In this document: positions 35,300-41,580 of the stretch, one piece after another
How the letters are laid out: every line of letters begins with the position of its first letter
How positions within the stretch are numbered: position 1 is the first letter of the stretch
Sequence record: NC_070990.1
Reading direction: 5' to 3' (one strand)
Length of the DNA: 64,000 nucleotides
From: Escherichia phage MN03
Notes under the pieces: model-generated
What the model was told of the DNA's origin: nothing
Databases searched by the model: none
What the model saw: the letters and a program-made list of their open reading frames with translations, nothing else
Made by a program: the position numbers and the translations under genes

Positions 35300-35584
35300 T
35301 CAACCTCTTGGGAATGGCATCAAAAATTCCATAGCAGATTTAATCTCATTATTGATTCGTGAATCACGATAAGAGATAAACTTACCTTTGCTATCACGTA
35401 ACATCACATGGGTTCTGGCTGTTTTGTGAGGGAGCAATGTGATACTAGTTGGAATAGCATCAATCCCTACAGCGTATTTGTCAATAGTCTTACTTTCAGC
35501 CAACAGATAAGACCAAGTACGCGGTTTCTGCTCCGGGCGGTTAGGGTATGTGTCCCGAATTTGAACCATAGCTAACTTATTCAT
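35300..35584 (-). CDS. hypothetical protein, paralog pair member
   Basis: Shares ART-V-LRD-GKFISY motif with 35586..35840. Confidence 0.4.
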   Translation of the reverse strand: MNKLAMVQIRDTYPNRPEQKPRTWSYLLAESKTIDKYAVGIDAIPTSITLLPHKTARTHVMLRDSKGKFISYRDSRINNEIKSAMEFLMPFPRG

Positions 35585-35585
35585 A

Positions 35586-35840
35586 TTAAACTCCTTTAGG
35601 GAATGGGATGAGATTTTCTACTGCAACACGGAAAGATTTTTCTACGTTCTTATTCTTATAAGAGATAAATTTTCCATCAGCTCCTCGAAGGAGTACGTTA
35701 GTGCGAGCTGTATTTGGGTTTTGTTGAATCATAGAACGAATGATGTTCTCTGAACCTCTATGCTTATTGGTGAATTTCCAACTGATAGTTTTACCGGTAC
35801 GAGTTACATCAATGATGTTTACGATTTTTACAATAGACAT
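35586..35840 (-). CDS. hypothetical protein, paralog pair member
   Basis: Shares the motif with 35300..35584. Confidence 0.4.
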   Translation of the reverse strand: MSIVKIVNIIDVTRTGKTISWKFTNKHRGSENIIRSMIQQNPNTARTNVLLRGADGKFISYKNKNVEKSFRVAVENLIPFPKGV

Positions 35841-35909
35841 ATTTATTACCTAAGAAGTTTAATTTGGTTTATATAAAAGAAAAGGCCACCTGATTAGGCA
35901 GCCTTTGTT

Positions 35910-36203
35910 CTAGAGACGAAGCCAAGTTTGATAGTCAGCTTCAGTGTAATGGTTGTTTCTAGAGTTATTTTTCATTTCCTTGAGAGTAGCTCTCAGGTCA
36001 ATGTTATGCTCTCTCCTTGTTCTATTCGGGTCTGTATCTTCTAATAGATGGGAGTGATCACTACAAGAGTAGTGCTTATAGTGGTCCCTGTATCCTCTAC
36101 TTGGAGAATACTTGGTCATTAAAGTTGCAACTCTTTTTACACCCTCTGCTTTACAGAATTTACAATAAGTGTGAATTGTACATCTTTTTGTTTCTGCTGA
36201 CAC
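35910..36203 (-). CDS. hypothetical Cys/His-rich protein
   Basis: ORF. Confidence 0.35.
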   Translation of the reverse strand: MSAETKRCTIHTYCKFCKAEGVKRVATLMTKYSPSRGYRDHYKHYSCSDHSHLLEDTDPNRTRREHNIDLRATLKEMKNNSRNNHYTEADYQTWLRL

Positions 36204-36213
36204 TATAACCTCT

Positions 36214-36528
36214 TTATGAGCTTAAAGCTCCTTTGCGTGCTCCAGCTGCTTTTCCAGCTCGATCACCACTTTTGCCGCCGTTTGAACGGTTTGAGCTGAC
36301 TGATTCAACACGTAAGTTGCTTGACGCATTAGAGCCTCCAGACTTGACAGCTCGTTTGTGTCCAACGTCTTTACCTCTGACAGCAGCTTTTCCATCGCGC
36401 TTTTCAACGATGCGACGTGCACGGTGGCGCTGAGCATCTCCGCTCTTGCTCCCAACGCCTGTTTCACCACGGGCAATTGCGGTACGTCTTTCTTGTGCAT
36501 AATCTCTCTTTCCTACATGATCTGCCAT
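36214..36528 (-). CDS. basic Gly/Ser-rich protein
   Basis: Strong AAGGAG RBS; GC-rich codons; phage-sigma motif 36 nt upstream. Confidence 0.45.
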   Translation of the reverse strand: MADHVGKRDYAQERRTAIARGETGVGSKSGDAQRHRARRIVEKRDGKAAVRGKDVGHKRAVKSGGSNASSNLRVESVSSNRSNGGKSGDRAGKAAGARKGALSS

Positions 36529-36564
36529 TTAGAACTCCTTAATATATCAGTGTACACTAAGGAG

Positions 36565-36573
36565 TATACATTA
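36565..36573 (-). promoter_or_regulatory. TAATGTATA motif on the minus strand, candidate phage-sigma promoter
   Basis: Reverse complement CTTATAATGTATACT; 36 nt upstream of the ATG at 36528. Confidence 0.45.
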
Positions 36574-36584
36574 TAAGTTACTGT

Positions 36585-37322
36585 TTAAGCTTTCTTTTCC
36601 ATTGCTTTAACAATCGCCTTACAGAAACCAGAACGAACAATATCATCTGATTCACCATCTACAATCTCAGCAAACTCATACAGATCGTGTTCATCAATAA
36701 AGTTAGTAGCCCAAGTTAGACCACTCTCGCGACCACGCATATCATGCTGGTTTGTATCACCCATACAGAACAATTGAGAGGTTTCTCCCAATCGAGTCAT
36801 GATGGAGAAGGCTTCATCCTTAGTTGTGTTCTGGAACTCATCAACAATAACAATAGCATCATTGAAAGAACGACCACGGAGATATTCCAGAGGTACAAAC
36901 TCAATGTTACCATTTCCGATTTGGCATTCATAGAATCCCTTACCATATCGCTGAGTAATAACATCAATGATAGGCATCAGGTATGGTTCAAACTTCTCAC
37001 GCATTCCTCCCGGAAGTAACCCAAGAGAGTTGCCCATGCCAACCGAAGGGCGACTCAGAATGATCTTCTGAATCTTACCGCTCTTCAGTGCATCAATAAC
37101 TGTGGAAGTGATTACAAAGGTCTTACCACAGCCCGCAGGAGCGTCTGTGAACACAACTTGTTTAGTCTTAATAGCATTGAGTAGCTCAGACTGAAACTGG
37201 TTCTGAGGGACTACAGGCTTTGCTAAAACCACCTCTTCATACTCTCGCTTACCCTTACGAGTAACAAGTGCTTCTCGACGAAGGTCTTTCCGTGATTCTT
37301 TCCGTGATTGACGACGACTCAT
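36585..37322 (-). CDS. phoH: PhoH-like ATPase
   Basis: Walker A GCGKTF and PhoH-like length and pattern. Confidence 0.7.
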   Translation of the reverse strand: MSRRQSRKESRKDLRREALVTRKGKREYEEVVLAKPVVPQNQFQSELLNAIKTKQVVFTDAPAGCGKTFVITSTVIDALKSGKIQKIILSRPSVGMGNSLGLLPGGMREKFEPYLMPIIDVITQRYGKGFYECQIGNGNIEFVPLEYLRGRSFNDAIVIVDEFQNTTKDEAFSIMTRLGETSQLFCMGDTNQHDMRGRESGLTWATNFIDEHDLYEFAEIVDGESDDIVRSGFCKAIVKAMEKKA

Positions 37323-39757: not shown

Positions 39758-39767
39758 ATCAAATCCT

Positions 39768-39946
39768 TATGCAGTCAGGAGGTGAAGCAGGAATGGGATA
39801 ACAACAGCTACGATAACCATGATAGTTGATGCTGTTTGAATCTCACCTTTCTTATCAGGGGTTTCTTCAATAAGCTTACCAGAAGCCCAATAAATACCAC
39901 CACCAATAAAGATAGCCCAAATACCCCATACGATTGCTGATAACAT
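39768..39946 (-). CDS. small 2-TM membrane protein, paralog B
   Basis: Own translation (MLSAIVWGIWAIF...); AAGGA RBS. Confidence 0.35.
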
Positions 39947-40006
39947 ATATCTATATCCTTATAAATAAGTTCGCCCCACCTCGGGTTAGGAGACAGGGCG
40001 GAGGTT

Positions 40007-40570
40007 TTAGTAAGACACGTCACCACTTGAATGGGACATGTTGCTCTTGACGAAGTAGCAATACTTGCCAAGACCTTCATTAATCTCTTGAAGCATACTC
40101 TGATCAACAGGGTAGGTGGCTAAATCACCATCAAACTCATCCATCTTCTCAATAATACACATCAAGGTCATGCACATATCAGAGAGCATACCGTCCATAT
40201 CTAGGTCAGCATTACCCTCTGAGAACCAAGCATGAGAAAGATAGTTAGCTGCTGTAGCGTCCACTTTAACGCAGTGGTAACGCATACGTTCAGCAATACG
40301 ATCTCCTACCTGTCGTGCGTAATCTTCCAGCTCATCAAACATACCATGAACACCCTGAAATCCTGCACCAGAGACGTTCCAGTGGTAGTTTTTAGCTTTG
40401 ATATGCAAGAGTTCCATGTTAGCTTGTAAGCAGCTCAGGATGTGTTCTAGGCTGTTTGCACTAATCATGCCTTGCATTGTTTCAAGGCGAGAGATTGAAA
40501 GATCAGACCGGTCTAACATACTATAGCTGTCACGACCAATCTCAGGTAAATCAAAGACATTCTTATGCAT
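40007..40570 (-). CDS. Dps-like ferritin-fold protein
   Basis: HWNVSGAGFQGVHGMFDE ... DRIAERM matches the Dps signature. Confidence 0.6.
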   Translation of the reverse strand: MHKNVFDLPEIGRDSYSMLDRSDLSISRLETMQGMISANSLEHILSCLQANMELLHIKAKNYHWNVSGAGFQGVHGMFDELEDYARQVGDRIAERMRYHCVKVDATAANYLSHAWFSEGNADLDMDGMLSDMCMTLMCIIEKMDEFDGDLATYPVDQSMLQEINEGLGKYCYFVKSNMSHSSGDVSY

Positions 40571-40892
40571 TTGGGTTTTCTCCATCAAGTTCAACTGAGT
40601 TAGCAACGTTACGTGCAATATTATCCATTACCTGCTGGGTAATTACGATGCAGTTCTGTGGGTCTACTGACTTAGAACGCCCCATTTCAGGGTCATACAC
40701 CTTAACTCGCTTAGCAGTTGAACCTGTAACCTGAAGAACCTTCAACAGATATCCCTGATTACCAATAGACCAAGCAACAACATCACGATTCTTGATAAAG
40801 CGACCAAGCATATCACGATGATAAAACTGTTGCATCACCTTGGATTTTGTAATCTCTTCAGTGGGCGGGGCCACTTTACTCAAATCTAACAT
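40563..40892 (-). CDS. hypothetical protein
   Basis: ORF; AATGTATA-type motif 39 nt upstream. Confidence 0.4.
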   Translation of the reverse strand: MLDLSKVAPPTEEITKSKVMQQFYHRDMLGRFIKNRDVVAWSIGNQGYLLKVLQVTGSTAKRVKVYDPEMGRSKSVDPQNCIVITQQVMDNIARNVANSVELDGENPNA

Positions 40893-40931
40893 AACTCTCT
40901 CCTGTAAAATACAAATTCTTATTGTACTCTA

Positions 40932-40940
40932 TATACATTT
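40932..40940 (-). promoter_or_regulatory. AAATGTATA motif on the minus strand, variant phage-sigma promoter
   Basis: One mismatch from TAATGTATA; 39 nt upstream of the ATG at 40892. Confidence 0.35.
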
Positions 40941-40964
40941 GAGAGTTACCATATCTACTACCAA

Positions 40965-41174
40965 TCAGTAGTAAATTACTTTAGACATAAAAGAACCAGT
41001 GTTAGGGTCTTCATACCAGCGATGTATGTCAGCGCTTTTTACTATTGTGCCCAGAGTCTTCAACTGTTTCTTAGCAATACGAGCCTCTTTGCGAGTATCA
41101 AACAATTTGATGTTATCTTTTCTCATGTGTTGCTCAAGATCCCAAACAACATGAATAGCCCACATCTTTTTCAT
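40965..41174 (-). CDS. small protein, triplet paralog 3
   Basis: About 68 aa, ends VIYY; similar to the two neighbours. Confidence 0.4.
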   Translation of the reverse strand: MKKMWAIHVVWDLEQHMRKDNIKLFDTRKEARIAKKQLKTLGTIVKSADIHRWYEDPNTGSFMSKVIYY

Positions 41175-41383
41175 TAGTAATGTACCTTTCCGCTGATATA
41201 AACACGACCAGAAGAATACTCCTTGGCCTTATGGATACTGATACTATTAACCACGTCACCAGTAAGCATAGTCTTTTTAAAATCTCGAGCTTGTTGGCGA
41301 GTGGGTAGTGCAGTCATAGTCATGCCACCTGATGCCCACTTAATCTTTGCTAACCAAAATTGTCTCATGGTGATCGGTCTCAT
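41174..41383 (-). CDS. small protein, triplet paralog 2
   Basis: Ends KVHY. Confidence 0.4.
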   Translation of the reverse strand: MRPITMRQFWLAKIKWASGGMTMTALPTRQQARDFKKTMLTGDVVNSISIHKAKEYSSGRVYISGKVHY

Positions 41384-41580
41384 TAATAATAAACCTTACT
41401 GTTGGCAAAAAAAGCACCTTCGCTATTCACAATAGCTTTTCCAATTGTAACCTTGTTAAGTCTAAAAGTAGACTTGTATTGATTTTTGACCCTACGTGCG
41501 TGTTCTCGAGTCTTAACAAAATCTACAGCTACTAACTCTCCAGTCGTGTTATCATGTACACGAACAATCCACTTTTTCAT
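41383..41580 (-). CDS. small protein, triplet paralog 1
   Basis: Ends KVYY. Confidence 0.4.
   Translation of the reverse strand: MKKWIVRVHDNTTGELVAVDFVKTREHARRVKNQYKSTFRLNKVTIGKAIVNSEGAFFANSKVYY

Follow-up and report, generated by a model that had tools for sequence, protein, structure and literature searches.

Virulent phages such as SPO1, in its host-takeover modules, and those of the T4 type, in their early regions, carry arrays of small accessory genes present in multiple copies. Here, we analyzed a stretch of 64,000 nucleotides of Escherichia phage MN03 (NC_070990.1; hereafter the window), in which seven short open reading frames (ORFs) located between positions 35300 and 41580 form three sets: set A, a pair encoding basic proteins, set B, a pair encoding membrane proteins, and set C, a triplet encoding basic proteins. 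Like the SPO1 and T4-type arrays, these ORFs are short, lineage-restricted, packed and co-oriented, their content varies between close relatives, and homing endonucleases flank them. In contrast to these arrays, the three sets are located in a middle replication cluster rather than in an early host-takeover block, and the comparison involves no sequence or structural link. Our favored interpretation, to which we assign a probability of about 0.75, is that A, B, and C are genuine, ancient, and lineage-restricted paralog families of small accessory proteins in the middle-gene cluster of the genus Kuravirus. Virulent phages commonly carry small accessory genes that are paralogs, and the finding is in this respect ordinary as it stands.

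The type phage phiEco32 carries genes gp56 and gp57 (A), gp66 (B), and gp69, gp70, and gp71 (C) in identical order and orientation and with identical junctions. It differs from the window by its single membrane protein gene, gp66, which is the ortholog of B2, and by the lack of both B1 and the adjoining gene of 58 amino acids (aa). No mention of phi32_56, 57, 66, 69, 70, or 71 was found in the papers searched, and the Kuravirus and 7-11 genome papers (PMC9965538, PMC4281155, PMC4331800) contain no mention of paralogs or gene duplication. Each set falls in a single PHROG of 'unknown function', 6814 for A, 9296 for B, and 4939 for C (E values of 1e-28 to 1e-39). Since every member of a set matches one PHROG over its full length, the paralogs had already been grouped by remote-homology clustering. 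Thus, public databases already contain both the genes, which are present in near-identical genomes, and their grouping, although the PHROGs provide no function and hold nothing on paralogy, copy number, or the cassette described below.

Paralogous genes in the middle-gene cluster

The 7.2-kb stretch surrounding the three gene sets is 98.9% identical to Escherichia phage EcM-vB1 and displays 86-99% nucleotide identity, block by block, with phiEco32. It matches 98 phage records, nearly all of them from E. coli or Shigella phages. Based on this near-identity and on the matching records, the sequence of the window is assigned to Kuravirus (phiEco32-like E. coli podophages of the C3 morphotype, subfamily Gordonclarkvirinae). 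The seven ORFs that had been listed in the initial annotation were all recovered at their positions on the minus strand, inside a leftward-transcribed cluster of replication and nucleotide-metabolism genes encoding DNA polymerase, PhoH, ThyX, thioredoxin, a Dps-like protein, dCTP deaminase, and a nucleotidyltransferase. This cluster has been placed in the 'middle' expression class (PMC9965538; PMC8948821). The negative GC skew observed throughout the region fits minus-strand coding, and the plus-strand ORFs are short antisense ORFs devoid of support. An Rfam scan of the region returned no match. The genes considered here are the following:

35586..35840, minus strand: A1, 84 aa, basic (isoelectric point, pI, of 10.8; 15 K+R versus 5 D+E), apparent core member of family A
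35300..35584, minus strand: A2, 94 aa, basic (pI 10.0), paralog of A1
39767..39946, minus strand: B2, 59 aa, hairpin of two transmembrane (TM) helices, apparent core member of family B, present in all relatives examined
39572..39757, minus strand: B1, 61 aa, two-TM paralog of B2, accessory copy carried on a cassette
39383..39559, minus strand: 58-aa gene, phrog_19504, GTG start, unrelated to B, travels with B1
39377..39760, minus strand: two-gene cassette (B1 and 58-aa gene), 384 bp
41383..41580, minus strand: C1, 65 aa, basic, start abutting the dCTP deaminase stop, ends in VYY
41174..41383, minus strand: C2, 69 aa, basic, apparent core member of family C, start codon overlapping the C1 stop codon in TAATG, ends in VHY
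40965..41174, minus strand: C3, 69 aa, basic, last of the dcd-C1-C2-C3 run, TAATG overlap with C2, ends in IYY
41581..42114, minus strand: dCTP deaminase gene (dcd), the context of the family C array, which follows directly with no intergenic gap

A1 and A2 share the motif TART(H/N)V(M/L)LR..(K/D)GKFISY and a ...PFP(R/K)G terminus. They were 50% identical over the C-terminal 40 aa (BLASTP E value of 2e-14), and their Smith-Waterman score (z score of 20.4) was matched by none of 2000 shuffles. Both proteins matched phrog_6814 over its full length (profile positions 1-85/86) with E values of 7.3e-39 for A1 and 1.2e-36 for A2 in searches with hidden Markov models (HMMs). The motif sharing previously reported for this pair is therefore borne out.

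B1 and B2 were 33% identical over their full length (BLASTP E value of 2e-10). Since TM proteins can look alike through composition, the alignment was compared with shuffles preserving the composition of TM1, the loop, and TM2, and the observed score exceeded all 5000 of them (z score of 7.6). In both proteins, Kyte-Doolittle windows exceeded 1.6 at residues 1-21 and about 34-61 and thereby delineated two hydrophobic helices with a charged loop in between, in agreement with the earlier description of two-TM proteins of 59-61 aa. Full-length matches to phrog_9296 (profile positions 1-59/59) were obtained with E values of 2.3e-30 for B1 and 3.6e-34 for B2.

For set C, described as a triplet of 65-69 aa proteins ending in (V/I)(Y/H)Y, the pairwise comparisons were significant for C3-C2 (BLASTP E value of 3e-5; shuffle z score of 7.8) and C2-C1 (7e-6; 8.9), but not for C3-C1 (2.3; 2.4). 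However, profiles of the C1, C2, and C3 orthogroups, built separately from 89 database homologs, were linked by hhalign in all three pairs (E values of 4e-6, 2e-10, and 2e-8, the latter for C1-C3). All three proteins also matched phrog_4939 over its full length (E values of 1.7e-28 for C3 and 6.8e-28 for both C2 and C1). The family representatives have in common W5, a TRxxARxxK helix, IH(K/R), and a C-terminal Tyr. Homology is thus supported by alignment statistics within each set, although C1-C3 is not significant in the pairwise comparison.

All seven genes are preceded by a ribosome-binding site and are separated from their neighbors by gaps of 0-12 nt or 1-nt TAATG overlaps, and more than 90 genomes have them at conserved positions. 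The ratio of nonsynonymous to synonymous substitution rates (dN/dS), determined with orthologs from nine relatives, was 0.07-0.64 for all orthogroups, with many synonymous differences. These comparisons indicate that all copies of A, B, and C are protein-coding and under purifying selection. The view that the similarities result from chance or composition, or that the ORFs are not genes, could draw on the C1-C3 comparison and on the compositional resemblance of TM proteins. It is contradicted by the profile-profile link between C1 and C3, by the TM-preserving shuffles, by the dN/dS values below 1, and by the ribosome-binding sites and conserved positions. Already refuted by the statistics, this explanation has virtually no probability left.

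Age, copy number, and exchange of the paralogs

To compare copy number in related phages, the locus was retrieved from eleven relatives belonging to three genera and from the Cronobacter phage GAP52 (Grimontviridae), and six-frame ORFs were scanned with the family HMMs. The iterated family B HMM was contaminated by N-terminally over-extended ORFs and was discarded in favor of the first-round model. Scanning with the three HMMs revealed no further family members anywhere else in the window.

No gene-length nucleotide direct repeat was detected between paralogs. The only inter-paralog repeat at the DNA level was an 18-nt segment with 89% identity (35369/35658), which encodes GKFISY, and identity between paralogs within the sets was only 25-50% at the amino-acid level. 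In the family C tree, sequences grouped by genomic position rather than by genome across Kuravirus, Suseptimavirus, and Nieuwekanaalvirus, defining the orthogroups C1, C2, and C3, in addition to a dispersed C4 (and C5 in EK010) located between the thioredoxin gene and thyX. The window lacks C4. Both family A copies were adjacent and in the same order in the ten genomes first surveyed (10/10, three genera), and A1 and A2 each scored far better in comparisons with the gene at the equivalent position of other Kuravirus genomes than in the A1-A2 comparison. Because family C clusters by position and both A copies occur in all three genera, these sequence comparisons indicate that the duplications are older than the separation of Kuravirus, Suseptimavirus, and Nieuwekanaalvirus.

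These results bear on the proposal, made in the initial annotation, that tandem duplications are characteristic of this genome. Recent and ongoing tandem duplication, active and pervasive in this genome, would account for copies that are adjacent and co-oriented, for the regular unit spacing in family C (209, 209, and 197 nt) with identical TAATG junctions, and for the presence of several other small families in the window. It does not account for the absence of nucleotide repeats longer than 18 nt, for the divergence of the paralogs, for the existence of closer orthologs of each paralog at the same position in other genera, or for the identical arrays already present in phiEco32, which was isolated long ago. 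In addition, B1 belongs to a transferred cassette and is not a copy of B2. Recent tandem duplication is, on these sequence data, largely refuted and appears very improbable. Of the earlier proposal, the paralogy stands, whereas local duplication of recent date does not, in view of the lack of DNA repeats, the position-wise clustering, and the cassette. Likewise, small-gene families are several in the window, but the three sets are old, inherited, and reshuffled among relatives rather than generated by a duplication process active in this genome.

The number of copies varied among relatives from 1 to 2 for A, 1 to 2 for B, and 1 to 4 for C. Family A was represented by two copies, or by one in Bas93, and about half of the relatives harbored only one family B gene. 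Family C comprised one copy in Bas93, two in SU7 and FH3, three in the window, phiEco32, SU10, Bas90, and Bas88, and four in WFI101126, KBNP1711, and EK010. C1 was missing from the Suseptimavirus relatives and from Bas93, and an HNH_3 endonuclease gene (FH3_100) was found in place of C1 in FH3. Other small genes of the relatives were considered as potential family members (the 58-aa gene, SU10_072/WFI_076, KBNP_0074/Bas88_0062, and FH3_100), but none belongs to the families, FH3_100 being an HNH endonuclease gene. Taken together, these genome comparisons indicate that copy number varies by loss, by replacement with HNH endonuclease genes, and by recombination.

Bas93, a member of a Kuravirus clade with genomes of 67-69 kb, harbors exactly one member of each family in its 16-kb locus, namely A1, B2, and C2. 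These genes look like the core copies, the other copies (A2, B1, C1, and C3, as well as C4 and C5 in relatives) being apparently dispensable. This map of core and accessory copies, in which A1, B2, and C2 are retained, points to small genes that are likely to be dispensable in the dissection of Kuravirus genomes or in therapeutic engineering. Tight coupling of A1 and A2 and their joint presence in ten genomes had raised the possibility of an obligate heterodimer, which was dropped since Bas93 harbors only A1. The DNA polymerase of Bas93 is annotated as two joined pieces with an endonuclease VII gene in between (positions 8698-11248 of the retrieved locus, L010).

Outside the three genera, GAP52 provided a single marginal HMM match for family A (E value of 0.004; gp062, positions 15684-15959 of locus L011, ...ARTLRTNIAVRDPKTGRFL...), located beside MazG and DNA polymerase genes, and a single marginal match for family C (E value of 0.038; gp065, L011 13272-13514). 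In line with these HMM matches, Foldseek matches to proteins of GAP52 and SE131 had TM-scores of 0.71-0.76. As the single marginal HMM matches were all that the distant phage GAP52 yielded for A and C, the expansions may be confined to the Gordonclarkvirinae lineage. Among 5.8 billion proteins, 92, 87, and 14 clusters were obtained for C, A, and B, respectively. All family clusters with source names originated from Kuravirus-type phages, and contigs of about 77 kb carried many of them. For family C, only 20 representatives were retrieved from 1.8 billion proteins by an exhaustive profile search. The distant representatives P0191 and P0195 had no close match in cultured phages.

Set B has a different history. 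B1 showed no nucleotide difference among the window, WFI101126 (Kuravirus), SU7 and Bas88 (Suseptimavirus), and KBNP1711 (Nieuwekanaalvirus), whereas synonymous divergence (dS) of the adjoining B2 gene was 0.7-1.1 between these same genomes. Block-wise alignment revealed that a tract of roughly 390 bp (window 39770 to 39380) was 97-100% identical, with flanks at 30-90%. The cassette consisting of B1 and the 58-aa gene is thus shared by the window and these four relatives at 97-100% nucleotide identity, whereas phiEco32, SU10, Bas90, and FH3 lack exactly positions 39377-39760. The limits of this indel extend from the start codon of B1 to the start codon of the thioredoxin gene, behind a common TAAGGA ribosome-binding site. 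The B1 type was detected by tblastn in 43 of about 96 related records. Because of the 97-100% identity across three genera and of this distribution, the sequences indicate that B1 was exchanged horizontally and not duplicated locally, B1 and B2 being old paralogs whose co-occurrence in the window results from a recent exchange of the two-gene cassette between genera. Gene conversion around a neighboring hot spot for homing endonucleases plausibly helped this exchange, and the 384-bp cassette provides a clean marker of recent inter-genus recombination beside that hot spot.

The hot spot in question is the junction between the thioredoxin gene and thyX, which is limited to 15 nt in the window (39091-39105) and variable in relatives. 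At this site, relatives carry a further family C paralog, the fourth or fifth (WFI101126, KBNP1711, Bas88, and EK010), an HNH_3 gene (SU7, FH3, and EK010), or nothing. The inserts are located at positions 10286-10777 of locus L004, 9876-10346 of L009, 10065-10975 of L007, and 10280-10483 of L008.

EK010 has kept the 58-aa gene together with a single membrane protein gene (EK010_55, L007 9431-9610), the two ends of which resemble B2 and the loop B1. From its sequence, this gene looks like a B2/B1 chimera. Some C3-type proteins (P0085 and P0079) have a C-terminus of the C2 type (…SYISGDVHY). The chimera-like gene and these hybrid C-termini suggest that recombination occurs between paralogs.

Candidate functions and expression of the three families

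A and C are strongly basic (pI 9.8-10.8). The AlphaFold2 model of A1 has a beta-beta-alpha-beta-(beta)-alpha topology (predicted local distance difference test, pLDDT, of 78), and that of C2 a beta-beta-alpha-beta-beta topology (pLDDT of 84). Since both models contain a beta-beta-alpha-beta-beta core, A and C were evaluated as distant relatives, a kinship that was rejected at the sequence level (hhalign probability of 0.1%). Given the conserved Arg and Lys residues, the TRxxARxxK helix of C, and the beta-beta-alpha-beta-beta core, the most likely ligand of A and C would be nucleic acid or an acidic host protein. By such binding, A and C may modulate host or phage DNA or RNA transactions in mid-infection, and are probably co-expressed with the replication and nucleotide-metabolism genes. 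Diverged paralogs may have different specificities, and one copy per family would be enough for a viable phage.

The C-terminal half of A1 (TARTNVxLRGADGKFISYKNKNVEK...PFPKG) is near-invariant and the N-terminal half is variable. The ratio of nonsynonymous to synonymous polymorphism (pN/pS) was 0.57-0.71 for the N-terminal half versus 0.16-0.31 for the C-terminal half, with two allelic types within Kuravirus. Positive selection on the N-terminal half was considered and dropped, since pN/pS was elevated but never greater than 1.

This faster evolution, combined with the lineage-restricted distribution and the variable copy number of the proteins, would fit a role of A, C, or both as anti-defense or host-takeover inhibitors of specific host proteins, such as a restriction or repair enzyme, paralog expansion being in that case the signature of an arms race. 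Gordonclarkvirinae have been reported to be remarkably resistant to restriction-modification (RM) with no known inhibitor (PMC11990801), an observation that would also fit such a role, and the neighboring dcd and nucleotidyltransferase genes have been hypothesized to take part in a DNA modification (PMC11990801). However, pN/pS values do not exceed 1, no PADLOC or anti-defense family was matched, and Bas93, which harbors single copies, belongs to a group (Bas86-93) reported to be RM-resistant (PMC11990801). The pI of 9.8-10.8 of A and C also argues against a DNA mimic similar to p56. We regard inhibition of specific host proteins as possible but unlikely. A and C are nonetheless candidate effectors, as two basic alpha/beta mini-proteins with confident models in a phage group with unexplained RM resistance. 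A more far-reaching scenario, which we consider a long shot, would attribute the resistance of Gordonclarkvirinae to RM and other defenses to A, C, or both, as expanded families beside the locus for dCTP deaminase, nucleotidyltransferase, and replication, and, separately, would view the cassette of B1 and the 58-aa gene as a selfish two-gene module, for example an exclusion or toxin-antidote pair, that sweeps three genera by gene conversion with the help of homing endonucleases at the adjacent thioredoxin-thyX junction.

Class II holins are proteins of about 60-95 aa with two TM helices, and holin/antiholin pairs are known. B proteins have this size and topology, with two hydrophobic helices and a charged loop in 59-61 aa, and the presence of two similar forms together is reminiscent of such pairs. 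A function as holin or antiholin-type lysis regulator is nevertheless improbable. The B genes are located between the Dps-like gene and the thioredoxin and ThyX genes in the middle cluster, not beside lysis genes. The sole lysis gene annotated in the 16-kb locus of Bas93, encoding an Rz-like spanin, is located about 9 kb from the B gene. Searches of PHROGs, Pfam, and NCBIfam identified no holin family, the only match being phrog_9296, and half of the relatives harbor one copy only. Because of the gene position and the lack of a holin family match, B proteins are more likely to be exclusion or membrane modulators. As predicted inner-membrane helical hairpins, they would probably act on a process at the membrane, for example superinfection exclusion, or on the function of a host membrane protein, rather than serve as the lysis holin.

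Gene spacing suggests co-transcription and translational coupling of A and C with their neighbors. In the gene order A1-A2-53aa-gp54-like-DNA polymerase, A2 starts 1 nt past the stop codon of A1, and A1, A2, and the 53-aa gene downstream of A2 are spaced by 0-1 nt. In the dcd-C1-C2-C3 run, the Shine-Dalgarno sequence of each downstream gene of the C array falls within the codons for the conserved C-terminal ...K-V-(Y/H)-Y of the preceding paralog. The following signals were identified in the vicinity of the three sets:

35881..35906, minus strand: terminator-like hairpin, 11-bp stem and T-run, within the 69-nt gap that immediately precedes A1
39972..40000, minus strand: terminator-like hairpin between the Dps-like gene and B2
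40932..40940, minus strand: AAATGTATA, one mismatch to the promoter element of the gp36 sigma factor, within the 72-nt gap that follows C3

Terminators are annotated in WFI101126 and SU7 at the position equivalent to the 35881-35906 hairpin. The consensus of the promoter element recognized by the phiEco32 gp36 sigma factor is tAATGTAtA (PMC8948821). As a class, matches with one mismatch were not above chance frequency, and no exact gp36-type element was found directly at any of sets A, B, and C. An exact element, TAATGTATA, is present at 36565-36573 on the minus strand, upstream of a gene encoding a 104-aa protein. This protein (phrog_4590; window 36214-36528, minus strand) is very basic, of low complexity, and rich in Gly, Ser, Lys, and Arg. 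Its gene contains an internal 19-nt repeat, with copies 138 nt apart, and is overlapped by a 92-aa ORF in another frame.

Several observations weigh against our interpretation of A, B, and C as accessory families with the roles proposed above. Pfam, NCBIfam, and PADLOC scans of the seven proteins returned nothing above noise, and profile searches of PDB sequences returned nothing significant for A and C, for which neither structural nor family matches are informative. DNA mimics such as p56 are acidic proteins with a DNA-mimicking surface. The best fold matches of A are acidic inhibitors of host proteins (p56, Dmd, and T7 Gp2), and the closest known systems include the uracil-DNA glycosylase inhibitors p56 of phi29 and VMY22 (PDB 2le2, 8ail), small dimers with a fold of beta-sheet plus helix. 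In contrast to the acidic surface of p56, A1 and A2 have pI values of 10.8 and 10.0, respectively, and no sequence homology to p56 was detected in the profile search of PDB sequences, in which the best match (E value of 0.022) was an unrelated chain. The acidic-inhibitor matches therefore neither fit the basic A proteins nor prove a binder role. Dispensability of the extra copies is deduced from one natural small-genome clade, and coupling and operon structure from gene spacing only. Finally, the hairpins directly upstream of A1 and B2 could imply lower expression of these genes or separate signals.

Other features of the window

Additional small families were observed outside the middle-gene cluster. 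In the early-gene region (window 57082-62484, minus strand), jackhmmer linked at least nine small ORFs of 72-113 aa in one family, which presumably corresponds to the 11-member family mentioned in the initial annotation. In the late region, two adjacent large ORFs on the plus strand (15643-16695 and 16708-17676) are paralogs with 31% identity over 275 aa (E value of 2e-10). Two antisense ORFs on the minus strand (4636-4914 and 5014-5217) display 66% identity over 41 aa, a likeness that probably reflects an internal repeat in a plus-strand late gene. A perfect sigma-70 consensus (TTGACA-17-TATAAT, 12/12, extended TG) is present at 34642-34670 on the minus strand, in the 5'-terminal part of the DNA polymerase gene (32853-34697).

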